Of a stretch of DNA of 64,000 nucleotides, positions 9,647 through 62,104 are shown piece by piece. The notes below the pieces were generated by a model, which saw nothing but the letters and a program-made list of their open reading frames with translations, did not search any database and was not told the DNA's origin. Source of the DNA: Chlorobiota bacterium. GTDB taxonomy: Bacteria; Bacteroidota; Ignavibacteria; OLB7. The stretch lies in the NCBI GenBank assembly GCA_016788565.1, contig JAEUSP010000063.1, forward strand, positions 71,919-135,918, read 5' to 3'. A program made the translations under genes and the position numbers. Each line of letters begins with the position of its first letter. Within the stretch, counting starts at the first letter, position 1.

Positions 9647-9786
9647 AGAGGAAATGATGGATTGTGGTTAAGGATGGTTGGCATCGCGTAGCGTGTGGGG
9701 AATCAGGAAAAAAATAAGAAGGGAAGATGGGGAGCAATACCCCCCATCTTCCTTCCTGTCATTTTTATTCACTGATAATGCTCAGC

Positions 9787-17540: not shown

Positions 17541-20378
17541 TTACCGCAAATCCAATTTCCTCACCGCTGCTGGCTGCTGCGGGGCGGCGGTTGTTGTGCC
17601 GAATGGGCGAATTGGGAAACGGTGAAACGAAAATGCCCCAACCCCGCGCCGGTTGACTATCCAAGGCCCTTCGTAAACAACGGATGTTCCGGCATACGAC
17701 TGGTCAGGGATGTAGCTGATCCGTGCGCCGGGATAGGAAGCGTTTAAATTCACCAGCACGGTATCGCCCAGCACCTGAACCGAACGAACTGCCTGCACGG
17801 TGTCATTCAGCAGAAATGCGTCACTCATGGTGCGGATGCTTCCGCCGATGGTGGCATCTGGAGTAACCAGCAACCCATGCTGGGCATTGCTAAACACAAG
17901 CGCGATTTGGTTCGATTCAGGAGTGGTGAACAATGCTGCTCGGATATTCGGCGAGCCAATATCCACTGTGTCGGTGGCCCCCAAAAAATCGCGGGCGAAT
18001 AATCGGAATAATTGCACGCCAATGGTGTCGTAGCCGGCGGCGGCGTAGTGGCAGCCATCGTGGCCAACAACGCCCATTGGCGAGTAGGTGACAACATCCG
18101 GGAAGCTGTCGGAAAGTGTGCGCTGAAGCTCGCGTAGTTCGCGGTGCGGCCCGGCAGCGCACCCCGGGCGAATTTGCACCACATACAGCTTCGTCAGTTG
18201 CGGGTAATCCTCCAGCCAATCGTTCCGCAACGCACGGAAGTTTGTGGCATAGTTGTTCACCGTGTTCGACTCACCCTGATACCACATCATTGCCCGCGCG
18301 TGCGCTGCCAGCCCAGATTTTTTTACGCGGTAGAGCATACTGCCGTAGATGGTGGAAAGCGTCTGCGGCGCGGCATCATTCCGTTGGTGCTGCTCGATAG
18401 CCGTTCCCCCAACCCCTCCATTGATAACGCAAAGTGGAACACCAGTTTCCTCCACGTACAGCCGCGCCAGCCGCATTCCCCACGCGCCAATGTTCGGGCC
18501 ACCGCCGGACCCAACTCCGCTTGCTACGGCCCAGAGCGTGTCGCGCTGGTTCTGCGAGAAATTCAAACCGTACGTCCGGCAGAACTCACTTTGCCCGGCA
18601 CCCTGGCCGCCATGCCCAAAAATGGAGTTCGATTGGCCGCAGATCAGCAGCACATCCCCGCAAGTAATGCTGTCGCGTGTGGCGATTACGCTATCTCGAG
18701 CGGCACCTCCATTGCCAGCCGCACGCAGCCTGACGGTAAAATGATATTCGGCAAGGGCCGCGGCAATGCGGGGCGCAAACGCGAACGGCGCGCTTCCGGC
18801 GGCGTACTGCAATGGGGCTGATAATCGCTCCCAACTGCTGTCGGCACGGGCAACTTCAACCACAATCGAATCCCACCCAGCAACGCGAACTATGCCAGTA
18901 ATCGGCACACTTGCCAAATTATCGTCCCCCCGTGGGAACAGTTGAAGCGGTGCGGGAATTGCGGTGAATGTTGAGTCCGGTTTTGGGGGAGCGGGGGGGA
19001 TGGGAATGCCATATTTGCGGAAAAGATACTCCTCGGTTCGCGCCCGCTCGCTGGGGGAAAGCTCACGGCGGTAAAGGATCACTTCGGCAATATCCCCCAC
19101 CAGCACGTTCCCCCCCTGAAATGCTCCCAAGTAGATTATGGAATCCAAGTTTTGCGGAACAGTTGCGCTGTCGGCAGCGTGGCTGTTGATGAAGAACGCG
19201 ACCCTGCGGCGCGCATCCTGATAGGCCATCGTGACAACCGAAAATTCCCCTTGCTGCACCGGAATGGAAGCCACCGCCTGTGCGTTGAAATCGCCATGCA
19301 GCACTTTGGCGTACTCTGCCCCGCCAAACCAGTGGGCGTGGGTGATGCCGGAGACGACGTTGTTGTTTGCGTTCAGGTTGTTCAATCGCACCACAAACGT
19401 CAGGGTGTAATCGGAGCGAGTTGGGAAGACTGAGGTTGCTTGCATGAAATTTCCGGCCCCGGCGAACCGGACTGCGGGAAGGTTAAATCGGGCGTTTGGC
19501 AGCAACACTGGTTGCCACTGAGCCGAGTCTTGCCAGGCGGAATAATTATTTCCGCTGCAATCGTTCCAGCGCGTCACCTTGCCATCGGCGGCTGGGGTGG
19601 TGATGCCGCTATCAGCCTTCAGCCAAAGGAGTGGTTTTTCGGCAGGGGTGGAGTAGGGGAGTGGGACGGGAACGCGATACCGCGCTATCCAGCTTGATTG
19701 CAGGCCCGATACCTCCGTTGGTGTTAGCACACGATCAAAGATGACCGCCTCGGCAATATCGCCGGTTAAAAAATTGGCTTGAGCATAAGCCCCTAAGTAG
19801 ATTGCCGGATCGGTGTTTGCAGGAACTTGGGCTGTGTCGGCAGCAAAACCGTTGATGATGATTGTTGCCGTGCGGGATGATTCGGTGTAGGTCACCACCG
19901 CAACGTTCATTGCACTCGTCACGGCGATGGCAGCGGTTGCTTGCTGGCTGAAGTTTCCGCTGTGCAGCACTTTCAGATATGGCACCCCGCCGAAGTAGTG
20001 CGCACGGTTGTTCCCCGAGATCACGTTGTTTGAGGTCCCGTATGAGTTCACCCGAACAGCAAACGCCACGGTGTAATCGCTCCCAACCGGGAAGACGGCT
20101 GAAGCCGTCATGTACTGTGCCCCGTTGAACCGGATTGCTGGCTGGCCCCCAGCCACATTCTGGATACGCTGCGGTTGCCTTTCGGTTTGGTTCTGCACGG
20201 CATCGTTGTTGTTGCCGCTGATGTCCTTCCATCGGGCAACAGCCCCGCCAACAATCACCACCCCGCTATCGGCACGAAAATGGAGTAACGAGCCGCTGGG
20301 AACTTGAGCAAGAAGCTGGGCCGCAAGCCCCAGAAAAAAGCTAATCAGCAGAATGGAGAAGGTTGTGAATCGCTGCAT
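17541..20378 (-). CDS. Large secreted protein: 3x LamG/concanavalin-like lectin repeats plus a SASA (sialate O-acetylesterase-like, SGNH) domain
   Basis: A signal peptide. The LamG-like motif GDIAEAVIFDRVLTPTEV occurs three times. The SASA motifs LLICGQSNSIFG and MMWYQGESN are present. There is no T9SS C-terminal domain. Confidence 0.55.
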   Translation of the reverse strand: MQRFTTFSILLISFFLGLAAQLLAQVPSGSLLHFRADSGVVIVGGAVARWKDISGNNNDAVQNQTERQPQRIQNVAGGQPAIRFNGAQYMTASAVFPVGSDYTVAFAVRVNSYGTSNNVISGNNRAHYFGGVPYLKVLHSGNFSQQATAAIAVTSAMNVAVVTYTESSRTATIIINGFAADTAQVPANTDPAIYLGAYAQANFLTGDIAEAVIFDRVLTPTEVSGLQSSWIARYRVPVPLPYSTPAEKPLLWLKADSGITTPAADGKVTRWNDCSGNNYSAWQDSAQWQPVLLPNARFNLPAVRFAGAGNFMQATSVFPTRSDYTLTFVVRLNNLNANNNVVSGITHAHWFGGAEYAKVLHGDFNAQAVASIPVQQGEFSVVTMAYQDARRRVAFFINSHAADSATVPQNLDSIIYLGAFQGGNVLVGDIAEVILYRRELSPSERARTEEYLFRKYGIPIPPAPPKPDSTFTAIPAPLQLFPRGDDNLASVPITGIVRVAGWDSIVVEVARADSSWERLSAPLQYAAGSAPFAFAPRIAAALAEYHFTVRLRAAGNGGAARDSVIATRDSITCGDVLLICGQSNSIFGHGGQGAGQSEFCRTYGLNFSQNQRDTLWAVASGVGSGGGPNIGAWGMRLARLYVEETGVPLCVINGGVGGTAIEQHQRNDAAPQTLSTIYGSMLYRVKKSGLAAHARAMMWYQGESNTVNNYATNFRALRNDWLEDYPQLTKLYVVQIRPGCAAGPHRELRELQRTLSDSFPDVVTYSPMGVVGHDGCHYAAAGYDTIGVQLFRLFARDFLGATDTVDIGSPNIRAALFTTPESNQIALVFSNAQHGLLVTPDATIGGSIRTMSDAFLLNDTVQAVRSVQVLGDTVLVNLNASYPGARISYIPDQSYAGTSVVYEGPWIVNRRGVGAFSFHRFPIRPFGTTTAAPQQPAAVRKLDLR

Positions 20379-20542
20379 TGCGTTGGTAAGGCTGTTGCAT
20401 GTGTGTGTGTGTGCGCGGAGTTTCCGGCGGGGTTAGAAGATAGCCAGATACCAGAATCCGCAGCACAGATAGACCCATGCAAAAAAAACGCCCACCTTTC
20501 GGCGGGCGTCCTCTCTGTTCAACGCATCCAGGAGTTTCTTAC

Positions 20543-23500
20543 TCAGTTGGCCACCGTCAAGCCACGACTCACAGCCTCTCCTGTTGCCGTAGCCAAACGG
20601 TAGCGGTATGTCCCACCTGGAAGTTTGCTAACGCTGAAGCTCACTTCGTGTTCTCCAGCCGATTTAAATCCTTCATCAATCCGTGCCACTTCGCGGCCCA
20701 ACGCATCGAACAGCGTCAGGGTAACGGTTGTGGCTGTCGCAATCCGGTAGCTGATGCGTGCTTGGTTGGAAGCCGGGTTCGGCATCGCCTGCGACAGGCT
20801 GATTCCGCCAACACCATCAACCGATTCCACTCCGCTGGTTCCTGATTCACTGCTTCCTCCAATCCCGTTTGCCACCCCGCCCAAATTGATAATCTGCGCC
20901 CCGTTCACGCCGTTGCTGTTAATGGTCAAGGTGGCCGTCGAGGTCCCGCGGTTCAGCGGGCGGAAGGTCACTTGCAGGTACTCCGTTTGCCCAGGGGCAA
21001 GGGTAAGCCGTGGCAGGCGGCCCAGCGTGTAGTCGGTGGCGTTCGGGCCGGTGACGGTGGTTGCCCCAAGCTGTAGCGGAAGCGTGCCGTTGTTGGTAAT
21101 CATCACGCTGCGGCGTGCAATTTTCCCGACGGCAACCGAGACATCGTCGAACAAGGTTGCTGGCCCTGCGGTGATGGTGCGGCTTCCGGCCTCACCGTTC
21201 AGCAGAATTTCCAGCGTGTCGCCATTGTTGGAAATCAGCAGAAGGCTTGCTTCGCGTGGCCCCGGTTGGCTTCCGGCCGCGGGGGTGTGAATCACCGAGA
21301 AACGCATCTGATCCCCCGGCAAGAAATCGAACGGAAGCACTGGCCAGGGGGCGGTTGGGTTCATCCCAAACTCGGCGGCATCGGGGCCAACAATCACTGC
21401 GTTCACAATCGTGACCTTTTCGGTTGCGGTGTTTTCCACGGTTGCGTTGGCAACGGCGTTGTTTGCTGCTGGGCCATCAATCACCGATGGGCCAAGCGTC
21501 ACCTGTTGGGTGTTTAGCCCAATGGTTCCAACGCCAACCACATCCCAGTAGTATGCGCCGGTTTCCATGTTCGGCAGGTGGCGGGCGGAATCGTTGGTTT
21601 GCAGGTACAACCCAGCGCGGCGCGAGCCGGTGCGGATCGGAGTGAAGCGAACGGTGATGGTGGAAGAGCCACCAGCCGGGATGATGTAATCGTTGCTTTG
21701 CGGATCAACGGTTGCGTTGGCAAACGCGCTGATGATCTGGAAATCGCGAACGTCACCATCGGAAATCCGGAAATCATCCTTGCTGATGCGAAGGTCGCAC
21801 GCGCCGGAGTTCCACACCGTGATGGTGGATTCTTGGCTTTGGCGAAGCCGTGTTGGCTGGAACGACAGCGACTGCAATTCCGCGCCCTCGGCGTTGCTTG
21901 CCAACTGCGCCCCCAAGCCTTTCCCGAACATATCCACCGACACCAAACCGTCGGTTCCAACACCCTCGGCATTGGCTGATGCAAAATTCAGTGCGTTGGT
22001 GGGGATGAACAATCGCGCCAAGCGTTTGCCCGGGCGTTGCGGTGCAAAGTTGATGTAGAAGGTGCGCGATTCCCCCGGCTTCAACACCATCGGGAACTCC
22101 GTCAGTGCATTGCTGGCAACTGGGGCAGTGCCTGGGAAATCGGTGATGAAGTAATCGCTTGCCGAAATCGGTTGGTTGTTCTGGTCGCGAAGCAGTGGGT
22201 AGCGCGGAACCCCTTGCCCGTAGATGGAATCGGTGCGGAAGAAATCTGCCGAGCCGATTGTCAGCGTCTGGTTTCCAACGCTGCGGACAGTAATGGCAAT
22301 GGAGTTCGCCGAAACGCCGCTGCACTCGAACACTTTGCTGAACAACGATTCGCCCGAACCAAGGGGCGCGCCGTTGGCGGTGAACTCGCCACCGGCACCC
22401 ACAACGGTTGCTTCCAAGGTGAACGTCCGTTTCTCGCAATCTCCCTCAATCGTTAGGGTTGCCGTCTGTTTGCCAAAGCGGCGCGATACGAAGGTGATGG
22501 TTGGCGTGCTGGTCTCCCCATTCATCAGCGTCGCGCTTGCGGGGCTGATGCGGAACTGTCCGCTGGGGTCGTTCAGCGTGTAGGTCACGTCCACCGCAGC
22601 GGTTTTTTTCGGTTCATCGGATTTCATTTCCGCAAGCATAGTCAGCGGCGTAAAAGTCCGCTGTTGGCCGTAGGTGACAGATGGATTTCCCAACAGCGTT
22701 GCGCCGTTCGGCATTCCATCCACACCACCATCTTCCAAGTTGCCGATCCATTCCAAACGGGAAGCTCCGCTGGCTTCTAACTGGTAGGTTGCGGTAAATC
22801 CGTTTGGCCCAGTGATCGTAAGCGTTGCCGGGCGTGGCCCAGTGCAAGCGGGGGTGAACGTGATTGTTGGCTCGATCATATCATCCGGGCCAACGCCAAT
22901 CTCGGCTGGCTCCACGCTGTACTCGTCGGCATACTGGCCGGTGATTGCAAACCGCACAATTTGCTTGGTGCAGTTCGAAGCAAGGTACATCTGGAATGGG
23001 CGCAGCGAGCGGGAGGTAGTATTCGGGGTTTGGATATTGCTGAGCAGCTTATCACCATCGAACATCTCGGAGGTTCCACCTTCGTCGGGATTCCCAGCAA
23101 ACTTGTAGCCGCAAGGCTGTGGCTGGAAGGTGATAAGGGTGTTTTCGGAGATTGAGTTGCTGGCCAAATCCGTGGCTTGGGTTGAGCTGAAATCAACGTA
23201 AAACTCCCCTCCGCTGAAATAGCCGCTGGCAAAATTTCCGCCGTCGGCAGCCGCGCCGATTTTTGCGTAGGTGTTGGTCCACGTCGCCATGCTTCCGTAC
23301 CAAAACTCGATGGTGTTGGAGTATTCGTACAAGCGAACCTGGAAGTGGTAGGTGTTATCCTTCGATTCCCCTTCGTAGCGGTGAAAGGCTTCCCAATCAA
23401 CAACCAACACACGCCCTTGCTTGCCATCCACCACTTGGTAGCGGACGCCGTTGTTGATGGTGATAAGCTCATCCCAAAACGGAGCAATCACGGGATAGAT

Positions 23501-23848
23501 GTCGGTACCATCGAAGGTCTGCCAGCCGTAGGGGGTGACATCGCTACCACCCAACCCTAACAACCCGTTGGAGTTCACGGAGAATTGGGAGTACATCACG
23601 CCATCGAACTCGAAGTCGAACCCGAGATCAATCACCCCCGAGGTGGCATCGTAAGCATCGGGGTAGATGATCTGTTTCGCGTCGTCCATCGTGAACGGCT
23701 TGCCGCTTCCGGTGGAGTACTTGTAGTCGTATAAGGAAGCTGCCGAAGGAGCAGCCATTGCAATCCAGAGCAGCAGCAGCAGCGGAAGCCGCCGAACCGC
23801 ACCGCCGTATGCCGTGGCGCGGAAACATGGTAACAGTGGTTGTAGCAT
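20543..23848 (-). CDS. Giant cell-surface protein with multiple choice-of-anchor-D / HYDIN-like Ig repeats and a T9SS C-terminal sorting-domain-like tail
   Basis: The signal peptide is taken from MLQPLLPCF..RRLPLLLLLWIAMAAPSAAS (the ORF track extends to 24007). Repeats are of the FDDVSVAVGKIARRSVMITNNGTLPLQL type. The C-terminus ends ..LPGGTYRYRLATATGEAVSRGLTVAN. Confidence 0.55.
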   Translation of the reverse strand: MLQPLLPCFRATAYGGAVRRLPLLLLLWIAMAAPSAASLYDYKYSTGSGKPFTMDDAKQIIYPDAYDATSGVIDLGFDFEFDGVMYSQFSVNSNGLLGLGGSDVTPYGWQTFDGTDIYPVIAPFWDELITINNGVRYQVVDGKQGRVLVVDWEAFHRYEGESKDNTYHFQVRLYEYSNTIEFWYGSMATWTNTYAKIGAAADGGNFASGYFSGGEFYVDFSSTQATDLASNSISENTLITFQPQPCGYKFAGNPDEGGTSEMFDGDKLLSNIQTPNTTSRSLRPFQMYLASNCTKQIVRFAITGQYADEYSVEPAEIGVGPDDMIEPTITFTPACTGPRPATLTITGPNGFTATYQLEASGASRLEWIGNLEDGGVDGMPNGATLLGNPSVTYGQQRTFTPLTMLAEMKSDEPKKTAAVDVTYTLNDPSGQFRISPASATLMNGETSTPTITFVSRRFGKQTATLTIEGDCEKRTFTLEATVVGAGGEFTANGAPLGSGESLFSKVFECSGVSANSIAITVRSVGNQTLTIGSADFFRTDSIYGQGVPRYPLLRDQNNQPISASDYFITDFPGTAPVASNALTEFPMVLKPGESRTFYINFAPQRPGKRLARLFIPTNALNFASANAEGVGTDGLVSVDMFGKGLGAQLASNAEGAELQSLSFQPTRLRQSQESTITVWNSGACDLRISKDDFRISDGDVRDFQIISAFANATVDPQSNDYIIPAGGSSTITVRFTPIRTGSRRAGLYLQTNDSARHLPNMETGAYYWDVVGVGTIGLNTQQVTLGPSVIDGPAANNAVANATVENTATEKVTIVNAVIVGPDAAEFGMNPTAPWPVLPFDFLPGDQMRFSVIHTPAAGSQPGPREASLLLISNNGDTLEILLNGEAGSRTITAGPATLFDDVSVAVGKIARRSVMITNNGTLPLQLGATTVTGPNATDYTLGRLPRLTLAPGQTEYLQVTFRPLNRGTSTATLTINSNGVNGAQIINLGGVANGIGGSSESGTSGVESVDGVGGISLSQAMPNPASNQARISYRIATATTVTLTLFDALGREVARIDEGFKSAGEHEVSFSVSKLPGGTYRYRLATATGEAVSRGLTVAN

Positions 23849-24310
23849 AGTTGTGATTCCGATTAATCGTGTAACGTTGGCATGGCGGCATAGCTGCCGC
23901 ATGGGAATGTGCCGAACAAGGCATCCCAAATGATACTTTTTGCGTGGATTGAAATGGATGAAGTGTGGTACATCCGGCAAAGGCGCGTGGCAGAGAGGTA
24001 TCAGCACGCCATGGGGGGAAGCACAGACTTCATGCAGGGAATGGCTCCCTGCCTATGATTGTGTTTTTGCTTACAAGAGCACAAGAAGCGTGAGCTGCGT
24101 ATTGCTGCGTTTGGTAGCTTCGTGTCGTCATCGCGAACACCAGCATAACGGATCAGCGTAGGCAAACATCACACTCGCCAGAATTGTTCGCGCATCGGTT
24201 GGCGATATTTCTCGGCCTTGATATATAAAAGAACCTTTGAGGTGGGCAAAGGTCACACTCAAGAAGGTTAATTTCTGTTCATCTGTCCACGTACTCACTT
24301 CGCAACAGCG

Positions 24311-27716: not shown

Positions 27717-27842
27717 CTGAAACCTTGTTAGAACATTTTGGATGATTTCTGCAACCGTACAGAATCACCGCCGTGTTGGGTTTGTATGTTGTGACTTCAA
27801 TATGGCCAGGAGAAACAGGGAGTGCAGTGCGAAAGCACTCAT

Positions 27843-27909: not shown

Positions 27910-28368
27910 ATGAAAACAAATTCCTCACTTCCGCAAAGTCGCCCGGGCGACTTCCTTCCACGGCTTGGTGCCGGCGTGTTGCTGCTGATTGGCGTGCTGA
28001 TTGCCAGCATGGAGCTTGCCCACTTTATCATCCGCTCCGGCGGTGTCTTTGCGTTGATGTTCAACGGGTTGATCGGTGCCGGGTTTGCGGTCTGCGGGGT
28101 ATTTTGGCTTCGTTACATTGCCGCGCTGGAACAAACCCGCAGACGGCTGTACGTGGAGAAAGAGGTTCTGAGTGCCGCTGCTCACCTGGGCGGATATGCC
28201 ACGCTTGCACAAATCGCGCTTGATTCACCGATAACCATCGGCGAGGCGCAAGGGGCTATCGAGGAACTGTGCCGGCATGGCGTGGCGCACCCCGAACTTA
28301 CCGATGATGGAACCGTGGTCTATCGCTTCCACGGATTGCGTGCCGGGAAAAATCTTCCCGGTGGATGA
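27910..28368 (+). CDS. Small two-TM membrane protein with a C-terminal cytoplasmic (possibly winged-helix-like) domain
   Basis: ATG at 27910 (MKTNSS..). The upstream part of listed ORF 27742 is repeat-derived. Two hydrophobic helices, then ..ATLAQIALDSPITIGEAQGAIEELCRHGVAHPELTDDGTVVYRF. Confidence 0.45.
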   Translation: MKTNSSLPQSRPGDFLPRLGAGVLLLIGVLIASMELAHFIIRSGGVFALMFNGLIGAGFAVCGVFWLRYIAALEQTRRRLYVEKEVLSAAAHLGGYATLAQIALDSPITIGEAQGAIEELCRHGVAHPELTDDGTVVYRFHGLRAGKNLPGG

Positions 28369-28401
28369 TAACCTCACTTCTGTTTCGGTGTTCATTGCAA
28401 C

Positions 28402-31400
28402 ATGGCAAGTCATTTCCCCGCCGATTCTTTCACTCACGGATTCTTGCTTCGGTTCCGAACGTTGCTGTTTGGAATGGGAAGCTGCCTGCTGATGCTACTC
28501 CTGATAAGCCAGTGGGGAATTTCTCAACCGATCTTGACGCTTGGCCCGATTGACACGACTGGATTCCCCAACCTAACGCTCCCGTTCTTCCTGTCCGATA
28601 GTTCAGGAACACCTCTTTCCGGCATCACCGCTTCCGACGTTGCCCTGACCGAAAACGGAGAACCCCGAATCGTGACCGGAATTGACTGTCCACCTATCAC
28701 CGCCCCGCGTGACCTCTCCTCGGTGCTTGCCATTGATGTCTCCGGCTCGATGTTCTACGGTGCGCCCGGTATCCTGATTGCTCGGGCGGCGGCCCAGGCT
28801 TGGGTTGAGCTTCTTCCGCTTGGTGGCTCGGAGTGTGCCGTCACCAGCTTCGATCATGCGGCCTACCTCAATCAAGATTTCACCACCGCACGCTGGAAAC
28901 TTCTGGAGGCAATCGAGCAGTTGCAGCCCCAGGGGGGAACCAGCTACGATAGCGCGTTGCTGGCAACCCCGTTCGGCGCGTTGAACATTGCCACCCGGGG
29001 CCAGCACCGCCGCGTGATTGTTCTGCTGACCGATGGCCAATCGGACATTGATGAAGGGGTGGTGATTGCCCGCGCAAACGCCGTTAGCGCAACCATCTAC
29101 TGCGTGACGATTGGCCTTGACGCGCCCCCGCCGCTGCAACGCATTGCCACGCAGACCGGGGGCTTCTGCATCCAAAATGTCAATAACGAAGCCGAAGCCC
29201 GCCAGGCGTACCGGCTGATACTTGGCCACGCGCGGTTTGGTGGGCTTTGCACAATTCGCTGGCGAAGCGGTTCGGCGTGCAGCCCGCAGCGCGATCTCCA
29301 AATTTCCATCCCCAGGCTGAAGGCCAGCGGGCGCGCTTCCTACCGTGCGCCGGCAATCGCGATTACTCAGGCAACCGCAATCCCCACCGGAATCCTTTTT
29401 CCGCCAACTCCACCCGGCCAATTCCGCGACACCACGATTGAGCTTGTTGCTGGCGATGCTCCAATTACTGTAACCGATATTGCAATTGGGAATTCTCAAT
29501 TCAGCGTGGTTGGTGGTGGCGCGCCGCCAGCGTTCACAATCCCTGCGGGCCAACGCCGAACCCTCACTCTCCGCTATCGCCCCACCGATTCGCTGCAAAC
29601 GTTTGCGACCGTTCGGGTGAGCGGAACGCCGTGCGGGGGAACCACAATTTTCCTGAGTGCCGGCTTCCCCGGACGCAACCCCGCAACCCCGTCGGTTCGT
29701 GTGGTGATGCCGAACGGAGGTGAGAAATTGGTGGTGAACGATTCGGTTGAGTTGCGGTGGGAAGGGGTGCTGCCAACCGACCGGGTTCGGTTGGAGTTTA
29801 GCACCGATGCCGGAGCTGCATGGAGCCAGATTACCGACAGTGGGGTTGGGCTGCGCCACGGCTGGCGCGTTCCCGATATGCCTTCGGAACGTTGCCTGCT
29901 GCGCGCCACGCTGCTTAGCCGCGACACAGTGGTGACGCTGCGCGGACACCAGCGTGCGGTGGTGCGTGCTGTCTTCAGCCCCGACGGCAAGCGCGCAGCA
30001 ACCGCCAGCTTGGATAGCACCGTTCGGGTGTGGGATAGCTACACCGGAGCCGAGTTGCTGAAGCTGGAACATCCCGCTCCTGTCCGTTCGGTGGCAATCA
30101 GCCCCAATGGAGCGTTGATTCTTAGCACCGCCACCGATGGCCAGGGGCGGCTGTGGAATGCCAACACTGGCCAGCTTGTTCGCCAGTTGTTCATTCCAAC
30201 GCGCCCGTTTGGTGATGGAACATATGCCAGCTTCAGCCCCGACGGAGCCGTTGCCGCCACCAGCGGAGTTGGAGCCAAGCCGGACAACGATGCCGAACTC
30301 TGGGACGTTGCCACCGGAACTCTGCTCCGCACCCTGAAGGGGCACACCAACTACATCACTCACATTGCCTTCAGCCCCGACGGCTCCCGAATTGCCACCT
30401 CGGGGGGATACGACCGCACGGTCCGAGTGTGGGATCGTTTCACCGGAAACGAACTGCTTCGCCTCACCGGTTTCACCGCCATTGTTCACACGGTGGAATG
30501 GACTCCCGACGGAACAATGCTCATCACCGCCAGCACCAGCGTGCAGCTGTGGAATGCCGCAACCGGCGCGGCCGTTGCACAATTCCCCGAAGGAGGTTTT
30601 TCCGCCAGCGTCAGCCCCACCGGAACTCAGGTTGCTATCAGCACGTTTGGACCGGTAGGAAATGGGGGATATGTGACGCTGTGGGAGCGGCAATCGGGGG
30701 CGTTGGTTGCCACGTTCGGCGGGGCGGATGTGCTTTCGCTCGGCTCCGATTTTAACGGCAACGGCCACCGAATTATCAGTGCCCAGCAGGACAGCACCGC
30801 CCGCATTTGGAATATCTCCCCCGAACCTGTCCAAAGCGATCAATCCGATAGCCTTTGGAGTATCGTCCGCGCCGCGCCGGAGCTTCGGCTGATTGATTTC
30901 GGGAAAGTGTTTGTTGGAAGCCGCCGCGATTCAGTCTTGACCGCGTGGCTCTGCAACCGCTCGGCAGCAACGATTGTGGTGGATTCCATCACCGTTGTGG
31001 CCGGGGATGTGGCTCAATTCTCGGTGGTGTCGGCGCGGTTGCCGGTGGTGTTGCCGCCGGGGGCTTGCCAACAGATTGAGTTCCGGTTTGCCCCGCAAGC
31101 TGTGGGAATCAGAAATGCCACGGTTCAGCTTCGCGGCAATTTTGGCAGTGCCGCCGCCCAGCTTCGGGGGGAAGGAATTTTGCCGGAGCTGACGCTAAAC
31201 GGAAGCATCGTTGATTTCGGAACAGTGCGTTTGGGAACCAGCCAAGATGCCGCTGCCACGGTGATGCTATCCAACAGCAGCCCCGCGCCGGTTCGGCTGG
31301 TCTCCATCAGCGCAATCGGCCCCGACACTCTGCAATTTTCCCGGCTGGCAGGCTGGCTTCCGATCACTCTTCTTCCTGGGCAATCTCACTCCATTCCTCT

Positions 31401-32208
31401 TCGTTTCAGCCCCACGCGGCTTGGGTTAGCAAATGGCCGGATGAACGTGATGGCTTCCCGCGAATCAGGTGAGCCGCTTGATGCCGTCATCATTCCATTA
31501 GTTGGGGAAGGAGTCTGTGCCGATATTGCCGCGGTTGTCACGGTTGCCGTTCCCGACACGCTGAGGGTGAAGGCGGGTGAGGTGGTGGCGGTCCCGGTGG
31601 TTCTGCGGAACGCCAGCAACGTCGCCGAATCTGGAGTTCGCCGTTTCAGAATGGTGTTGCGCTGCAACGCTTCGGTGTTGCTACCGATTGATTCCGGCGC
31701 GGCAAGCAGCATCGCCGACGGCCAACGAACCATCACGGTTCACGGCATCTGGAACGGAGCAAGCGATACGTTGTTGGTTCTGAATATGGTCGCGGGTCTT
31801 GGAAACGCCGAGTGGTCGCAACTCAGCATTGACTCGCTGCGCTGGGATATCGAGTGTCCCGTTGAAGCAACGTTGCAGCCCGGGGAAGTTCAGCTGTTGG
31901 ATTTGTGCAAAGATCAAAACGTCACCCGCCTGTTCAACCCCGATGCCCGGTTGTTCCTGCGCCCAGGATTCCCCAACCCGGCTGGCGATTATGTGGTGGT
32001 GGAGTTCAGCTTGCTGGAACCCGGTAAAACCATCCTGACGCTCTGGAACAGCAACGCCCAGCAGCTTCAAACCGTGTTCAGCCAGCAGATGCAAGCGGGG
32101 GAGCACTCCCTCGTCATCCCGACAGAAGCCTTGCCGAACGGCATCTACTTCTACAAACTGGAAACCCCAACAGCGCGATTGACACGTAAGTTTGCGGTGC
32201 AACGGTAG
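28402..32208 (+). CDS. Giant secreted VWA-domain / WD40 beta-propeller / choice-of-anchor-D repeat protein with a T9SS C-terminal sorting-domain-like tail
   Basis: The signal peptide is probably from MGSCLLMLLLISQ (28474). A VWA domain with MIDAS (LAIDVSGSM ... VIVLLTDGQSD). At least six WD40 repeats (LRGHQRAVVRAVFSPDGKRAATASLDSTVRVWD, LKGHTNYITHIAFSPDGSRIATSGGYDRTVRVWD ..). Three or more CoA-D-type Ig repeats. The C-terminus ends ..LPNGIYFYKLETPTARLTRKFAVQR. Confidence 0.65.
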   Translation: MASHFPADSFTHGFLLRFRTLLFGMGSCLLMLLLISQWGISQPILTLGPIDTTGFPNLTLPFFLSDSSGTPLSGITASDVALTENGEPRIVTGIDCPPITAPRDLSSVLAIDVSGSMFYGAPGILIARAAAQAWVELLPLGGSECAVTSFDHAAYLNQDFTTARWKLLEAIEQLQPQGGTSYDSALLATPFGALNIATRGQHRRVIVLLTDGQSDIDEGVVIARANAVSATIYCVTIGLDAPPPLQRIATQTGGFCIQNVNNEAEARQAYRLILGHARFGGLCTIRWRSGSACSPQRDLQISIPRLKASGRASYRAPAIAITQATAIPTGILFPPTPPGQFRDTTIELVAGDAPITVTDIAIGNSQFSVVGGGAPPAFTIPAGQRRTLTLRYRPTDSLQTFATVRVSGTPCGGTTIFLSAGFPGRNPATPSVRVVMPNGGEKLVVNDSVELRWEGVLPTDRVRLEFSTDAGAAWSQITDSGVGLRHGWRVPDMPSERCLLRATLLSRDTVVTLRGHQRAVVRAVFSPDGKRAATASLDSTVRVWDSYTGAELLKLEHPAPVRSVAISPNGALILSTATDGQGRLWNANTGQLVRQLFIPTRPFGDGTYASFSPDGAVAATSGVGAKPDNDAELWDVATGTLLRTLKGHTNYITHIAFSPDGSRIATSGGYDRTVRVWDRFTGNELLRLTGFTAIVHTVEWTPDGTMLITASTSVQLWNAATGAAVAQFPEGGFSASVSPTGTQVAISTFGPVGNGGYVTLWERQSGALVATFGGADVLSLGSDFNGNGHRIISAQQDSTARIWNISPEPVQSDQSDSLWSIVRAAPELRLIDFGKVFVGSRRDSVLTAWLCNRSAATIVVDSITVVAGDVAQFSVVSARLPVVLPPGACQQIEFRFAPQAVGIRNATVQLRGNFGSAAAQLRGEGILPELTLNGSIVDFGTVRLGTSQDAAATVMLSNSSPAPVRLVSISAIGPDTLQFSRLAGWLPITLLPGQSHSIPLRFSPTRLGLANGRMNVMASRESGEPLDAVIIPLVGEGVCADIAAVVTVAVPDTLRVKAGEVVAVPVVLRNASNVAESGVRRFRMVLRCNASVLLPIDSGAASSIADGQRTITVHGIWNGASDTLLVLNMVAGLGNAEWSQLSIDSLRWDIECPVEATLQPGEVQLLDLCKDQNVTRLFNPDARLFLRPGFPNPAGDYVVVEFSLLEPGKTILTLWNSNAQQLQTVFSQQMQAGEHSLVIPTEALPNGIYFYKLETPTARLTRKFAVQR

Positions 32209-32262
32209 GCAGCCAAGCCCTGTGTTGCCAAGCGGAGGGGAGCTTTAACCAAGAACCAAGGA

Positions 32263-35200
32263 TTGATACCCACAATGGGCCAACATAAATTTCCAACCGT
32301 CGGAATTATTGCGGTGGCATTGCTACTGCTGGTTGCCAACAGCGGCAGTGCGCAGCAGTTCGGCAAAAATAAATTGCAGTACCGCTCATTTGTCTGGAAA
32401 TACATTCAGACTGACCATTTTGATGTTTACTACTACGACGAAGCGGGGCTGAATTTGGCAAAATTCACGGCGAACGTCATCGAGCACGCACTGGCCGAAA
32501 TTCAGGAGCATTGGCGGTACCGCATCAACGCCCGCGTTTCCATCATCCTCTACAATTCCAAAAACGACTTCCAGCAAACCAACGTCATCGGCGAATATCT
32601 TCCCGAAGGAGTGGGAGGGGTGACGGAGCTGTTCAAAAACCGGGTGGTGGTTCCGTTCGAGGGTGACTGGGAGAAATTTCGTCATGTTATCCACCACGAG
32701 CTTGTTCACGCTGTGTTGAACGATAAATTTTATGGTGGATCCATTCAGCAGCTTATCAGCAACAACGTCCAGTTCATGCTTCCAATTTGGATGAACGAAG
32801 GGCTTGCCGAATTCGAGTCGCAAGGTGGGTATGACATCGAAACGGATATGTTCATCCGTGATGCCGTTATCGGGAATTACCTCCCCGATTTGCAGGAGCT
32901 TGGCGGATATTTTGCGTACCGTGGCGGGCAAGCCTTCTACTGGTATGTGGAAAAAAACTACGGTCGCGAAAAAATTGCTGAACTGCTGAACAACTGCAAG
33001 TCAGCCGGAAATCTTGATGAAGCCTTCCGAACATCGTTTGGGAAAGATGTAGAAGAGTTTAACGAGCAGTGGAAACACGACCTAAAAAAACAATACTGGC
33101 CCGACATTGCCGACCGCAAACGCCCTGTTGATTTTGCCAACAAACTGACTAACCACAAAAAAGAAGGTTCCTTTTTCAACACTTCCCCTTCCATTTCTCC
33201 CGATGGTCGCCGATTCGCATTTATCAGCGACCGCGACGGCTTCCGTTCGGTGTATGTTGCCGACATTGACAAGCCAGAAAAAGCGGAACAAATTTTTGAA
33301 GGTGAGAGCGACGTGAATTTTGAGGAGCTTCATCTTCTTACTCCATCCATTGCCTGGTCTCCCGATAGCCGTCGTATTTCGCTATCAGTAAAATCAATAG
33401 GGAGAGACGCAATTTTTATTTTTGACTTAAAGACTAATGATGAGCAAAAGTTGGAGTTTGATATGGATGCCATCTATTCGGTGGCTTGGTCGCCGGATGG
33501 CGAACGTTTGGCATTCCAGGGGATTAAGGGGGATCAGTCGGATATTTACGTCTATGAGCTGAAATCGCGTGATTTGGTCAATATCACCGACGATATTTAC
33601 AGCGACCACGACCCGCAATGGGAGCGCGATAACCGCACGATCTATTTTGTGAGCGACCGCCGCGATAACCCGGTTGGGGCTGCAAACCGCCGCAACATGC
33701 TGATCTGGAACTACGATTATCATTCCAGTGATATTTACTCCATCGGCATTGATGGTCGCGATTTAACGCGCATCACAAACACACCAACAATTATTGAAAA
33801 ATCCCCAACACCCGGGGTTGGTGGAAACTTGCTCTATATTTCCGACCGCAGCGGTATCAACAACATTTATCTGCGTGATTCCAGCGGAGCCACCCGTGTG
33901 CTCACCAACTCCATTTCTGGCATTGACCAGCTTGCGATTGCCAGTGATGATTCAAAATTGCTTTTTAATGCCTGGAACGACGACGGCTACGACATCTTCC
34001 TTCTGCGGCTTCCATTTACGCTGAAATACGAAACCGATACCCTGCCGCAAACAAAATTCTTGGATGAACGGCAAGTGGCTGCCGGGGCAACCAGCATGAA
34101 GGCCGACACTGTCGCTCCGGAAGTTGCTGTCACCACAGTTACATCGGTTGATGGATATGGCTCGGTACGGATTGACCCTGACGATGCTGTTGCCGCTCTT
34201 CCTCCATCGGGCGGTGGAGCATCGGATATTCCAGCAGCGGTGCGAACAAGTGTGGATAAACGGGTGGATTCTGGTGACTTTGCCAGCAAGGACTACAAGG
34301 TAAAATTCAGCTCCGATTTTGTGCAAGCCGGTGGAACCTACGACCCGTTTTATGGCCCGCAGGGGATGATTCAAATGCTGTTCAGCGACGTGCTTGGCGA
34401 CCACCAGATATTTGCAACAATCAACCTGCAAACGGATCTGAAGAACAGTGATTTTTCGGTGAGTTATTTGTATCTGCCAGATAGAATGGATTATGGAGTT
34501 GGCGTTTTTCAAAATTCTGCTTTTGGATATCTGCCGGGGGTGGATGGCTACTATTACCTTACCCGTTTCCGCCAGCTTGGATTGCAAAGCCAAGCCGCAT
34601 ATCCGTTCGACCGATTTACGCGGTTGGATTTAGGACTTTCGGTCATGCACATCAGCCGCGAAGCAATGGAATCAGGCGGCCCACAGGGCAGCCCACAGCC
34701 GGATGAAGGGAAAATGATGTTTATCCCATCATTTAGCTATGTGTTCGATAATTCTTCCCCATGGTTTTTTTCGCCAAATAAAGGCTCACGCTACAATATC
34801 ACTGCCCAGGGCAGCCCGAAATTAGGGAATGCTGGCATTGGATTCTACTCACTGTTGGGTGATTTCCGTCACTACATTCCGTTCGACCGCGACGGCTTTT
34901 CCAGCTTGGCACTTCGCTTTGCTGGCGGGGCAAGTTTTGGCGCAAACCCGCAGAAATTTTTTCTGGGTGGGCAAGAGGGGTGGTTGAATTATCAGTTCAG
35001 CGACCAAGGGTCGTTTGAAAGCCCGGAAGACTTTTTCTTTTTTACACCAGGCTATCCCATGCGTGGCTTCAATTTTAGCGAAGAGGTGGGGAATAAGTAT
35101 GGCTTAGCAAATGCCGAACTTCGGTTCCCGTTGCTGCAAGCGATTGTTGGTGGGGCGGTTCCGTTGTACTTGCAGGGTAATATCTTCACCGATATTGGCG

Positions 35201-35400
35201 CTGCATGGAACTCCACGCTAAATCTTACCAAGCAAGATGCTGCTGGAAACACCATCACCGATGATCTGTTAATCGGCACTGGGTTTGGGTTTCGCACATA
35301 TTTGTTCGGCCTTCCTGCACGGCTTGATGTAGCGTGGAGCTATAATCTGGAATCGTGGAGCCCCCCAAAATATTATTTTTCGTTGGGGTATGATTTTTAG
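32263..35400 (+). CDS. Fusion protein: signal peptide / gluzincin (HExxH...E) peptidase-like domain / TolB-like PD40 beta-propeller / C-terminal Omp85 (bacterial surface antigen) beta-barrel
   Basis: HHELVHAV ... WMNEGLAEF (HExxH then an NEG-type Glu, M1/gluzincin-like). PD40 repeats (FNTSPSISPDGRRFAFISDRDGFRSVYV, WSPDSRRISLS, WSPDGERLAFQG). C-terminal barrel motifs FFLGGQEGW..RGF..GLANAELRFPL..LDVAWSY, ending ..YFSLGYDF. Confidence 0.6.
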   Translation: MIPTMGQHKFPTVGIIAVALLLLVANSGSAQQFGKNKLQYRSFVWKYIQTDHFDVYYYDEAGLNLAKFTANVIEHALAEIQEHWRYRINARVSIILYNSKNDFQQTNVIGEYLPEGVGGVTELFKNRVVVPFEGDWEKFRHVIHHELVHAVLNDKFYGGSIQQLISNNVQFMLPIWMNEGLAEFESQGGYDIETDMFIRDAVIGNYLPDLQELGGYFAYRGGQAFYWYVEKNYGREKIAELLNNCKSAGNLDEAFRTSFGKDVEEFNEQWKHDLKKQYWPDIADRKRPVDFANKLTNHKKEGSFFNTSPSISPDGRRFAFISDRDGFRSVYVADIDKPEKAEQIFEGESDVNFEELHLLTPSIAWSPDSRRISLSVKSIGRDAIFIFDLKTNDEQKLEFDMDAIYSVAWSPDGERLAFQGIKGDQSDIYVYELKSRDLVNITDDIYSDHDPQWERDNRTIYFVSDRRDNPVGAANRRNMLIWNYDYHSSDIYSIGIDGRDLTRITNTPTIIEKSPTPGVGGNLLYISDRSGINNIYLRDSSGATRVLTNSISGIDQLAIASDDSKLLFNAWNDDGYDIFLLRLPFTLKYETDTLPQTKFLDERQVAAGATSMKADTVAPEVAVTTVTSVDGYGSVRIDPDDAVAALPPSGGGASDIPAAVRTSVDKRVDSGDFASKDYKVKFSSDFVQAGGTYDPFYGPQGMIQMLFSDVLGDHQIFATINLQTDLKNSDFSVSYLYLPDRMDYGVGVFQNSAFGYLPGVDGYYYLTRFRQLGLQSQAAYPFDRFTRLDLGLSVMHISREAMESGGPQGSPQPDEGKMMFIPSFSYVFDNSSPWFFSPNKGSRYNITAQGSPKLGNAGIGFYSLLGDFRHYIPFDRDGFSSLALRFAGGASFGANPQKFFLGGQEGWLNYQFSDQGSFESPEDFFFFTPGYPMRGFNFSEEVGNKYGLANAELRFPLLQAIVGGAVPLYLQGNIFTDIGAAWNSTLNLTKQDAAGNTITDDLLIGTGFGFRTYLFGLPARLDVAWSYNLESWSPPKYYFSLGYDF

Positions 35401-42106: not shown

Positions 42107-43591
42107 TTGCAGCCAGACATTGAACAGACCCGGTTGCGGGTATCCAGAGAGACAAACGCCACGAAGAAGGCACAATTCGGCCAATTCCTTACGCCACAAC
42201 GGATTGCGGCTTTTATGGCAAGCCTGTTCCCGCCCGCCGGGGGAATCTGCCGTTTGTTGGATGCGGGGGCTGGCATTGGTTCGCTTTCTGCAGCGTTTCT
42301 GGAGCGGTGGCGTGCTGGCAATTTTCAATTTCAGCGCGTCGAGCTTGACGCATTCGAGGTAGATGATTCCTTGCACGCTGAGTTATCGCGAACATTCTTG
42401 CAGTATCGAAGCGAATCATTCAGCCTGCATCTTCATGGTGATGACTTCATCCACGCCGCAGTGAGCGCGCTTTCCGGCGGACTTTTTTCAAAGGCACTGC
42501 AGGGGTACAGCCACGCCATACTCAATCCGCCGTACAAAAAAATCAATAGCACGTCGGCGCACCGTTTGGTACTGCGTGAGATTGGGATTGAGGCGGTCAA
42601 TCTTTACTCAGCTTTTGTTGCGTTATCGCTGGCACTTGTTATTCCGGGCGGGCATATCGTTGCAATCATTCCACGCAGTTTCTGCAACGGGCCATACTAC
42701 CGTCCATTCCGTGATTCCATTCTTCGCCAATCGGCTATCCGTCACCTCCATTTGTTCAACTCGCGCAGCAAGGCGTTCAAGGATGATGATGTTTTGCAGG
42801 AGAATATCATCATTCTGTTGGAACGTGGTGGCCGCCAGGAATCGGTGACTGTTTCAACTTCGACCGATGATACTTTCGCTGATCTGACCCAGCACAACTA
42901 TCCGTTCAGCCGGATTGTCTCCCCCGATGATTCAGAGCGATTCATTCATGTCCCCACCTCACCTGCACCAACTTCCCTTGAGTTATTGCCGGCGATTCGG
43001 CACACCCTTGCTGATGTTGGCATCAGCGTATCAACCGGGCCCGTGGTTGATTTCCGAGTAAAGGATCACCTGCGCGATATGCCAGGATCAAGCACTGTGC
43101 CGATGCTGTACCCCTGCCACTTCATTGGGCAAAGTATCCGATGGCCGATTGAGGGAATGAAGAAGCCCAACGCAATCGAGCGCAACTCTGCTACTGAAAA
43201 ACTGCTCTATCCAATCGGGTTTTATTGCTTGGTGCGGCGTTTCTCTGCCAAAGAAGAATCACGCCGCATCGTTGCAAGCGTTGTTGAGCCAGCCACGTTT
43301 GGCCAGGCATCCATGCTCGGCTTGGAGAATCACGTGAACGTCTTCCATGAGGATAAACAGGGGTTGCCGGAGCCATTGGCTCGCGGGTTGGCTCTGTTCC
43401 TGAACACAACCGCTGTTGACCAGCAGTTTCGGCAGTTCAATGGCCATACCCAAGTCAATGCCGCCGATCTGAAGTTGATGAAATATCCAAGCCGCAACGC
43501 CCTGATCCAACTTGGCTTGTGGGCAATGCAGCAAAAGGAAGCACCCACGCAAGCCCAGATTGATTCCACGTTAGAAACCCTGGCCGAATGA
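42107..43591 (+). CDS. Gamma-class N6-adenine DNA methyltransferase (Eco57I/M.BsuBI-M.PstI-like) of a type II RM system
   Basis: Motif I LLDAGAGIGSLS and motif IV NPPYKK, in gamma-class order. Length 494 aa is similar to M.BsuBI/M.PstI. A 4-bp ATGA overlap joins it to the downstream endonuclease gene. Confidence 0.75.
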   Translation: MQPDIEQTRLRVSRETNATKKAQFGQFLTPQRIAAFMASLFPPAGGICRLLDAGAGIGSLSAAFLERWRAGNFQFQRVELDAFEVDDSLHAELSRTFLQYRSESFSLHLHGDDFIHAAVSALSGGLFSKALQGYSHAILNPPYKKINSTSAHRLVLREIGIEAVNLYSAFVALSLALVIPGGHIVAIIPRSFCNGPYYRPFRDSILRQSAIRHLHLFNSRSKAFKDDDVLQENIIILLERGGRQESVTVSTSTDDTFADLTQHNYPFSRIVSPDDSERFIHVPTSPAPTSLELLPAIRHTLADVGISVSTGPVVDFRVKDHLRDMPGSSTVPMLYPCHFIGQSIRWPIEGMKKPNAIERNSATEKLLYPIGFYCLVRRFSAKEESRRIVASVVEPATFGQASMLGLENHVNVFHEDKQGLPEPLARGLALFLNTTAVDQQFRQFNGHTQVNAADLKLMKYPSRNALIQLGLWAMQQKEAPTQAQIDSTLETLAE

Positions 43592-44544
43592 GTACCAACA
43601 CAAAGCGCGATCCTCTGAAGGAAGCTGAGCACATCCTTGCTTTGTTAGGGCTGCCTGTGGTGCAGCAGAACGAACGCTCCGCGCTTTGCCTGCTCTCTCT
43701 GTTGGACCTTCGTCCGGGTAAGGCTTGGAACAAGGCAAGGAACCCACTACTGGGGATCACCCCGATGATGGACTGGATGCGCAAGCACTACAACAAGGAT
43801 TACGCGCCAAACACCCGCGAAACAGTGCGTCGCCAGACCATGCACCAGTTTGTGGCTGCTGGGATTGCCCTGTACAATCCCGACAATCCTGACCGTCCGG
43901 TGAACAGCCCAAAAGCTGCTTACCAGATAGAGCCTGCCACACTTGCTTTGCTACGCAGTTTTGGCACCAAGCAATGGCACAGTAATCTGGTAAATTACTT
44001 GGCGATGCGCCAGACGCTGGTTGCCCGTTACGCCAAAGAACGCCAGCAAAGCCGCGTGCCGGTCAAAATTGCACCGGGTAAACAGATTACCCTAAGCCCC
44101 GGTAAACATAGCGAGCTGATTCGGGCAATCATCGAAGACTTCGCCCCACGTTTTGCGCCGGATAGTCTGCTGGTGTATGCCGGTGATACTGGCGACAAAT
44201 GGGGGTACTTCGATGCGGAGCTATTCCAAGAGTTGGGACTTACGGTTGATCCCCACGGCAAAATGCCCGATGTGGTGTTGTATTACGCACACAAAAACTG
44301 GTTGCTACTGGTGGAGTCCGTCACCAGCCACGGGGCAGTTGATGGGAAACGCCATGCAGAGCTTACCAAACTGTTTGCTGGATCACGGGTTGGTTTGGTG
44401 TATGTCACTGCTTTCCCAAACCGAGCTACTCTCAGCCGCTACTTGGGCGAAATTGCATGGGAAACTGAGGTGTGGATTGCTGATGCGCCTTCTCACCTGA
44501 TTCATTTTAATGGATCGCGCTTCTTGGGGCCATATCCTGCATGA
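43588..44544 (+). CDS. Type II restriction endonuclease, BsuBI/PstI family (probable)
   Basis: 318 aa, translationally coupled to the methyltransferase in the same M-then-R order as BsuBI. The family assignment is from overall length and organisation plus remembered similarity, not a search. Confidence 0.55.
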   Translation: MSTNTKRDPLKEAEHILALLGLPVVQQNERSALCLLSLLDLRPGKAWNKARNPLLGITPMMDWMRKHYNKDYAPNTRETVRRQTMHQFVAAGIALYNPDNPDRPVNSPKAAYQIEPATLALLRSFGTKQWHSNLVNYLAMRQTLVARYAKERQQSRVPVKIAPGKQITLSPGKHSELIRAIIEDFAPRFAPDSLLVYAGDTGDKWGYFDAELFQELGLTVDPHGKMPDVVLYYAHKNWLLLVESVTSHGAVDGKRHAELTKLFAGSRVGLVYVTAFPNRATLSRYLGEIAWETEVWIADAPSHLIHFNGSRFLGPYPA

Positions 44545-49690: not shown

Positions 49691-50105
49691 GCCACCTCAC
49701 ATTTCACTCTTCCCACCTCACTCTTCACTCTTCGCTTTGGCCCCCCTCTCCCACTCGACGAATGTGAGGCAACCAGCACTATCACACATTTGGGAGAGGG
49801 CGGGGGGTGAGGGCAGGCGGCGGCGGCTGAGTTCGGTGGCTCACGCTCATACTTCGACGGGGCTCAGCATGAGCCGAGGGCTGGGTTCGCGGTGGTCATT
49901 GGGCAGTGGTCAGTAGTGAGTTTCCGGCTTTGTCTTCATTTCACTCTTCCCACCTCACTCTTCACTCTTCGCTTTGGCCCCCTCTCCCACCCGACGAATG
50001 TGAGGCAACCAGCACTATCACACGCTTGGGAGAGGGCGGGGGGTGAGGGCAGGCAGCGACAGCGGCTGTGTTCGGTGGCTTGGCCGCAATCCGTCGCAAG
50101 GTATT
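49691..50105. repeat. Two direct copies (about 170 bp each, about 240 bp period) of a segment containing the conserved motif tcactcttcccacctcactcttcactcttcg and a long imperfect hairpin (cccctctccca-N40-tgggagaggg)
   Basis: 49691-49850 compared with 49930-50090: nearly identical apart from a few SNPs. Copy 1 additionally carries the 35458-type hairpin element. Confidence 0.8.
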
Positions 50106-50162
50106 GGGCGCGCCCAGAATCCATTGCCACACGGACTGCCCCGTTGTATAATTGCCGCATCT

Positions 50163-62047: not shown

Positions 62048-62104
62048 TCACTCTCGTGCACTCACTCTCGTGCACTCACTCTCGTGCACCCACTCTCTCA
62101 CTCG
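62035..62104. repeat. 14-nt tandem repeat (cactctcgtgcact x4-5) at the 5' end of the rsmI-like gene
   Basis: Read directly. Confidence 0.85.

Follow-up and report, generated by a model that had tools for sequence, protein, structure and literature searches.

The Omp85/TpsB superfamily has been split into ten subfamilies, and one of these, the 'WD40-like Omp85' proteins, combines PF07676 repeats with PF01103 (Table S2), numbers approximately 95 listed members (Table S3) and shows fold matches to TolB and to peptidases (Heinz and Lithgow 2014, Front Microbiol 5:370, PMC4104836). In 2024 the family was still not well characterised, while the N-terminal enzyme domain of another Omp85 protein, PlpD, was found to be periplasmic and not secreted (Hanson et al. 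2024, PMC11116518). Our literature search for functional work on propeller/peptidase-Omp85 proteins found no functional study, and a search on TolB-like Omp85 proteins returned only papers on TamL and on the β-barrel assembly machinery (BAM), in which the family is not mentioned. Here, we describe a member of this group encoded on a stretch of 64,000 nucleotides (the window) from a Chlorobiota bacterium (assembly GCA_016788565.1, contig JAEUSP010000063.1, positions 71,919 to 135,918). Between positions 27,910 and 35,400 of the window, the genes for a small membrane protein, a large secreted protein with VWA and WD40 domains (the VWA-WD40 protein) and a peptidase-propeller-barrel fusion protein (the fusion) lie in a row. 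An earlier note, made from this DNA alone, had considered the two large proteins as a candidate novel cell-surface module, the fusion having a non-canonical architecture. That novelty does not hold, since a peptidase, a propeller and an Omp85 barrel are precisely what the WD40-like Omp85 proteins already combine, and thousands of homologues exist.

The fusion is a WD40-like Omp85 protein

The starts of the first and third genes were taken from public gene calls on identical contigs. Although the reading frame of the fusion is real, the 1045 residues attributed to it previously depend on a TTG at 32263; the start is probably the ATG at 32275, which gives 1041 residues. The fusion is organized as follows:

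32275..35400, + strand: fusion protein, 1041 residues from the ATG (public gene callers' start; identical to P0001)
32275..32352, + strand: Sec signal peptide, residues 1-26, with a ...SGSA/QQ cut and without a lipobox Cys (sequence, hydropathy, N-terminus alignment)
32359..33144, + strand: gluzincin (thermolysin-like) metallopeptidase domain, residues 29-290 (HELVH at 32695-32709, NEGLAE at 32794-32811)
33172..34014, + strand: TolB/PD40-type β-propeller with six blades, residues ~300-580 (PF07676, partial TIGR02800 match, strand pattern, Foldseek match to TolB)
34015..34290, + strand: linker, with a helix at residues 594-608 followed by a disordered, poorly conserved stretch at residues 607-660 (predicted local distance difference test (pLDDT) scores, variable alignment columns)
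34291..35397, + strand: Omp85/BamA-type barrel of 16 strands, residues ~673-1041 (PF01103; RGF at 35062-35070; FTDIG at 35185-35199; C-terminal Phe)

The three parts that the earlier note had recognized, namely a gluzincin domain with an HExxH...NEGxAEF signature, PD40 repeats and an Omp85/D15 barrel with a terminal Phe, all scored above their cutoffs: 55.6 bits for Peptidase_MA_2 (cutoff 32.4), 50.9 bits for PD40 (PF07676; cutoff 20.9) and 37.2 bits for PF01103 (gathering score 24). The motifs are located at residues 141 (HELVH), 174 (NEGLAE), 930 (RGF, on loop L6) and 971 (FTDIG, on strand β13), and the chain ends in ...GYDF. The enzyme belongs to the gluzincins (clan MA(E)), as it has a thermolysin-like fold, an HExxH motif and a Glu ligand further along the chain; the GxMEN motif, N-terminal β-domain and HExxH-X18-E spacing by which M1 aminopeptidases are recognized were not found together in it. 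The C-terminal region displays the marks of the Omp85 superfamily, with PF01103, 16 strands, RGF, FxDxG and a C-terminal aromatic residue. The PD40 repeats form a single six-bladed propeller, which matched TolB profiles from the PDB (E 3e-16), and the precomputed Pfam matches include the Tricorn_N and Tricorn_2nd propellers.

At E <= 0.1, the Pfam matches included no POTRA family, and the NCBIfam BamA equivalog scored 12.9 bits against a cutoff of 1050, so the earlier view that this is not a canonical BamA, TamA or TpsB architecture was correct. In an alignment of 66 homologues, with identities down to 45%, the peptidase residues H141, E142, H145, E175 and E179 are invariant, as are R930, F971 and D973 in the barrel; G931 and G975 are nearly so, and many more barrel residues are invariant.

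With its PD40/TolB-like propeller, POTRA-less Omp85 barrel and N-terminal aminopeptidase/collagenase-like domain, the fusion falls within the WD40-like Omp85 subfamily catalogued in 2014, as judged from the domains and folds in Tables S2 and S3 rather than from a direct alignment. The two show no architectural difference: both carry PF07676 repeats and PF01103 without POTRA domains, have TolB as the best propeller match and have a barrel that matches BamA/TamA, the window protein being a Kapabacteria-lineage member. Among the candidates scored, 4604 gave significant matches to the fusion, and relatives were confirmed in at least 558 stretches of a one-genome-per-species collection, labelled mostly as metagenome-assembled genomes of Ignavibacteria, Kapabacteria, Chlorobiota or Bacteroidota. 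The 'WD40-like' accessions of Table S3 presumably include proteins of Ignavibacterium and Melioribacter. The subfamily, recognized in 2014 and still poorly characterised in 2024, is widespread, and the motifs of both its peptidase and its barrel are strictly conserved. Knowing what it does would reveal how the Omp85 scaffold has come to serve purposes other than protein insertion.

Structure model and comparison with known systems

An AlphaFold2 model of the fusion, calculated from the 66-homologue alignment, reached a pLDDT of 82 and a predicted template modelling score (pTM) of 0.79, with the following predicted elements:

residues ~36-290: helical/sheet domain
residues ~300-580: approximately 22 strands, read as a six-bladed propeller
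residues 594-608: helix
residues 607-660: disordered stretch, pLDDT <50
residues 679-1037: 16 barrel strands

The closest solved structures identified by Foldseek were BamA barrels (template modelling score ~0.6, normalised to the target) and TolB, and M9 collagenases, which are gluzincins, gave the best fold match to the peptidase domain. The segment between the propeller and the barrel (residues 581-672) was modelled as the helix and the disordered linker, with no POTRA fold. In the model, a long loop joins strands 11 and 12, where BamA has its L6, and this loop carries RGF. If the strand register is as in BamA, the chain would enter strand 1 from the periplasm, and the peptidase-propeller module would thus be periplasmic and tethered to the outer membrane. 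Structure prediction, which the earlier note had proposed as a way to decide between a periplasmic and a surface-exposed propeller, thus yielded a 16-strand BamA-like barrel and favours the periplasmic placement by inference.

When compared to BamA, TamA and TamL, the fusion shares the 16-strand barrel, the L6 (V)RG(F/Y) and β13 FxDxG motifs and the C-terminal aromatic residue, but an enzyme and a propeller occupy the N-terminal region where those proteins carry POTRA domains. PlpD likewise joins an Omp85 barrel to an N-terminal hydrolase kept in the periplasm, a reuse of the scaffold for a function other than insertion (PMC11116518); it differs in that it forms dimers and that its enzyme domain is a lipase, accompanied by one POTRA domain, whereas the fusion has a zinc peptidase and a propeller. 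The likeness to TolB is limited to the six-bladed PD40 propeller (TIGR02800, 120.1 bits versus a cutoff of 343), since the N-terminal domain of TolB is absent. DPP-IV/S9 and Tricorn enzymes also join a propeller to a peptidase, but theirs is a serine peptidase and that of the fusion a gluzincin. BepA, an M48 metallopeptidase acting at BAM, offers a functional analogy only: this zinc peptidase of the periplasm has a domain for protein interactions and works beside an Omp85 barrel, but it belongs to another peptidase family, carries a TPR domain and is a separate soluble protein, and we claim no homology.

The secreted VWA-WD40 protein

The gene upstream of the fusion encodes the following protein:

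28402..32208, + strand: secreted VWA/WD40/immunoglobulin (Ig)-like protein with a type IX secretion system (T9SS) tail, 1268 residues (Pfam and NCBIfam profiles, motifs)
28576..29142, + strand: VWA domain, residues ~59-247 (PF13519, partial TIGR03436 match, DxSxS of the metal ion-dependent adhesion site (MIDAS))
29914..30816, + strand: WD40 propeller of seven blades, residues ~505-805 (PF00400, E 4e-38)
30889..31512, + strand: Ig-like ASH/HYDIN/choice-of-anchor-D repeats, residues ~830-1037 (NF012200, PF15780, PF22544, PF22073)
31969..32205, + strand: T9SS type A C-terminal sorting domain, residues 1190-1268 (TIGR04183, PF18962)

The MIDAS-containing VWA domain, choice-of-anchor-D Ig repeats and T9SS tail reported previously are all present above curated cutoffs, with 41.1 bits for VWA_2 (PF13519; cutoff 27), 89.2 bits for choice_anch_D (NF012200; cutoff 45) and 29.4 bits for the T9SS type A sorting domain (TIGR04183; cutoff 23); a C-terminal fragment scored 32.8 bits against PF18962 (cutoff 27). 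The MIDAS motif reads DVSGS at residue 112. WD40 (PF00400) scored 128.6 bits, and seven blades could be delineated, each closing with WD, WN or WE, so that the count of 'at least six' repeats was conservative. The N-terminus is hydrophobic, as judged by hydropathy, and a signal peptide together with the sorting domain is what characterizes T9SS type A cargo. No T9SS machinery gene lies within the window, and export of the protein is a prediction; its most plausible identity is that of an adhesin-like protein brought to the cell surface by the T9SS.

Related VWA-WD40-Ig proteins are encoded in tandem in Kapabacteria-type genomes, with two to five paralogues per array (loci L085, L086, L087, L088, L090 and L091). 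Some members, of ~1550-1650 residues, end in an OmpA peptidoglycan-binding domain that replaces the T9SS tail, which indicates that cellular location varies across the family. No shared accessory partner, such as an AAA ATPase, was found for the family across L031 and L085.

Two-partner secretion (TPS) systems (TpsA/TpsB) associate an FhaC-type barrel bearing two POTRA domains with a TPS exoprotein. No POTRA or TPS domain was present among the Pfam matches listed for the two large proteins (for the VWA-WD40 protein, the best 25 of 48 families), and the latter carries a T9SS tail; the two-partner-like export device that had been suggested is thus unlikely.

Gene order in the window and in related loci

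Three open reading frames (ORFs) on the + strand, at 27742/27910-28368, 28402-32208 and 32263/32275-35400, are separated by 33 bp and by 54 or 66 bp, depending on the start chosen for the fusion. ORF and gene calls thus agree with the row of three co-oriented genes, with gaps of 33 and 54 bp, seen previously. No terminator-like site was found between the VWA-WD40 and fusion genes. The GC content at third codon positions (GC3) is unequal between these two genes (0.67 versus 0.54), a gap that is not decisive for horizontal transfer as the origin of the pair. The first gene is:

27910..28368, + strand: small membrane protein, 152 residues, with two or possibly three hydrophobic spans near the N-terminus and a soluble domain at the C-terminus (public gene call, hydropathy)

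The two membrane spans ascribed to it are thus seen, but hydropathy leaves room for a third. It gave no Pfam or NCBIfam match above cutoff. In L005-L008 and L089, a homologue of this small protein precedes the fusion, but at a distance of up to ~7 kb.

Genes were called in 84 related loci, and those flanking the fusion were clustered. A VWA-WD40 family member accompanies the fusion in the same species (L001-L004), in L005, where the fusion is 93% identical and the gene order the same, in L006 (fusion 63% identical), where it lies upstream with a 4-bp overlap, and in L089, from Chlorobi bacterium CHB2. In L031 and L034 (fusion ~45% identical) it is also adjacent, but downstream. Adjacency in related loci is limited to these cases, that is, to L001-L006 and L089, which form the clade of the window, and to L031/L034. 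In L007-L010, where the fusion is 55-60% identical, TonB-dependent receptors are found instead. Eight VWA-WD40 homologues could be located on contigs, and only the one with 75% identity adjoins a fusion gene; the other seven (30-37% identity) lie away from it, mostly beside paralogues. In JAXLVN01 the fusion (L057) and the VWA-WD40 homologue (L087) are on separate contigs, as they are in CAYVWR01 (L007 and L090). T9SS-tail proteins were not significantly enriched beside the fusion, with 11/152 adjacent positions versus 32/830 other flank positions (odds ratio 1.9, P = 0.08, the loci being non-independent).

The pair is therefore adjacent in some other genomes, as the partner-pair idea of the earlier note had called for, but this does not extend to L007-L010 or to seven of the eight distant homologues. 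The adjacency is real, lineage-limited and near the chance expectation for a multi-copy family, and it defines no module. The locus contributes one more subfamily member with a lineage-limited neighbour, and no new system; it should not be filed as a novel T9SS-linked module.

Two observations on individual loci may be added. L006 carries a second, highly divergent fusion-type copy (L006:766-3750; 994 residues, 23% identity, HEFTH and NEGTA motifs), situated upstream of a TonB-dependent receptor gene, the VWA-WD40 gene and then the orthologous fusion. L005 (JADZEY010000068.1) is labelled Armatimonadota while its relatives are Chlorobi/Kapabacteria, probably through a binning or labelling error.

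As to a different neighbour, TamB, 37 of the 82 related loci (~45%), mostly labelled Ignavibacteria, have it no more than four genes away from the fusion, typically two genes upstream. The usual co-directional order is a PfkB-type (heptose-type) sugar kinase, a cytidylyltransferase (HldE-like halves), TamB (~1500 residues), RNase R and, last, the fusion, with overlapping or 24-bp junctions (L013, L015 and L017-L024 among others; for instance L015:1767-13099). This arrangement is retained down to 49% fusion identity; the window and its clade lack it. The cluster hints at outer-membrane biogenesis and may be an operon for it.

Possible roles of the fusion

We consider it somewhat probable that the two large genes are simply neighbours, with no dedicated two-part device, one encoding a T9SS surface protein and the other an outer-membrane-tethered periplasmic metallopeptidase for envelope proteolysis. 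The genes, possibly co-transcribed, would sit on a Kapabacteria/Chlorobi-group chromosome. The upstream product would be exported by the T9SS and would present its MIDAS VWA domain and seven-bladed WD40 propeller on Ig-like stalk domains. The fusion would act as a zinc peptidase tethered to the outer membrane, its peptidase and propeller being suspended in the periplasm by a flexible linker of ~70 residues, as Omp85 strand topology and the PlpD precedent lead us to infer. By analogy with DPP-IV or Tricorn-type enzymes, the propeller may admit only peptides or unfolded chains. The most economical reading would be that the fusion serves in envelope proteolysis or in the quality control of outer-membrane proteins, in the manner of BepA at BAM. 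The wide distribution of the family fits a housekeeping role in the envelope better than a cargo-specific one, and the absence of a conserved neighbourhood supports neighbouring genes over a dedicated device. Some points weigh against this reading. The VWA-WD40 gene recurs beside the fusion, either upstream (window clade) or downstream (L031/L034), which, together with the terminator-free gap, may reflect a lineage-specific functional link. The periplasmic location of the peptidase-propeller module is assigned by analogy; strong conservation of the barrel interior suggests that the barrel is more than an anchor; and the function proposed for this uncharacterised family derives from sequence and a model.

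That the fusion anchors, processes or helps to export the VWA-WD40 protein as a T9SS cargo seems very unlikely to us, despite the shared strand, the short gap, the adjacency retained in L005, L089 and L006 and the downstream neighbour in L031/L034. The neighbour is missing in most other related loci, even close ones, most distant homologues sit beside paralogues, two genomes carry the genes unlinked, T9SS-tail neighbours are not enriched and GC3 differs between the genes; moreover, the subfamily list appears to hold lineages that we take to be without a T9SS (Vibrio, Geobacter, Anaeromyxobacter). A role in outer-membrane protein assembly, as a BamA-like insertase with a built-in BamB-like propeller platform, has been suggested (PMC4104836) and would account for the conserved L6 RGF and FxDxG motifs of the BamA-like barrel; the peptidase would then be accessory or inactive. 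We regard it as unlikely: the POTRA domains that bind substrates or partners in BamA, TamA and TpsB are lacking, the invariant catalytic residues argue for an active enzyme, and the propeller resembles TolB and peptidase-associated PD40 repeats rather than BamB. The barrel could also act much like a type V system and export the N-terminal module as its passenger, placing the peptidase and propeller on the surface for protein scavenging. The long flexible linker would allow this, gluzincins such as the M9 collagenases are typically extracellular, and the historical type Vd model for PlpD had the same form; however, the PlpD passenger was shown to be periplasmic and the export of folded domains through an Omp85 barrel is deemed unfavourable (PMC11116518). 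Given in addition that the conserved L6 RGF implies a BamA-like occupied lumen and that a module of ~550 residues with a propeller is a poor passenger, we find passenger export highly doubtful.

The TamB cluster suggests yet another role, in which the fusion would be a POTRA-less alternative outer-membrane partner of TamB in lipid or protein homeostasis. Although the cluster is tight and co-directional, with overlapping or closely spaced junctions, and persists in divergent loci, neither the window nor its clade has it, and RNase R separates TamB from the fusion. The group also appears to have TamL-type lipoprotein Omp85s, as the 'Lipo' list holds an accession that is presumably of Melioribacter type, and TamB presumably docks on POTRA domains, which the fusion does not have; this partnership has little chance of being correct. 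Finally, the fusion might by itself constitute a quality-control machine of the outer membrane. Its barrel would capture either the β-signal of outer-membrane proteins that have stalled or misfolded or the C-terminal domains of proteins exported by the T9SS, and would hand them to the tethered gluzincin under propeller gating. The fusion would process its co-transcribed neighbour in the window clade and be co-expressed with TamB in Ignavibacteria-type loci. We think this quite unlikely; if true, the protein would be equivalent to BamA and BepA joined in a single chain.

Other features of the window

Secreted and surface proteins are abundant at 8315-10659, 17541-24007 and 50043-52253 of the window. 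A BNR/sortilin-like protein (8315-9646) and a laminin-G/SASA esterase (17541-20378) showed no T9SS tail, and further T9SS-tail proteins are encoded at 9787-10659 (290 residues) and 20543-24007 (1154 residues, Ig/ASH). A BatA-type VWA protein is located at 50043-52253.

Two adjacent paralogous transglutaminase-core genes (609 and 643 residues) at 13635-17395 have a GC content of ~40% (GC3 ~0.40), versus ~55-60% in the rest of the window, and may constitute a horizontally acquired island. A type II restriction-modification pair, with an Eco57I-family methylase followed by a BsuBI/PstI-family endonuclease, lies at 42107-44544. Within the minus-strand ORF 59957-62047 (TP_methylase domain), a 39-nt (13-residue) tandem repeat at 60051-60655 encodes a repeated tail rich in Arg, Asp and Asn, in a region of strong AT skew (-0.3 to -0.6). 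Just past the upstream end of the same ORF, at 62034-62097, lies another repeat, with a unit of 14 nt and 4.6 copies.

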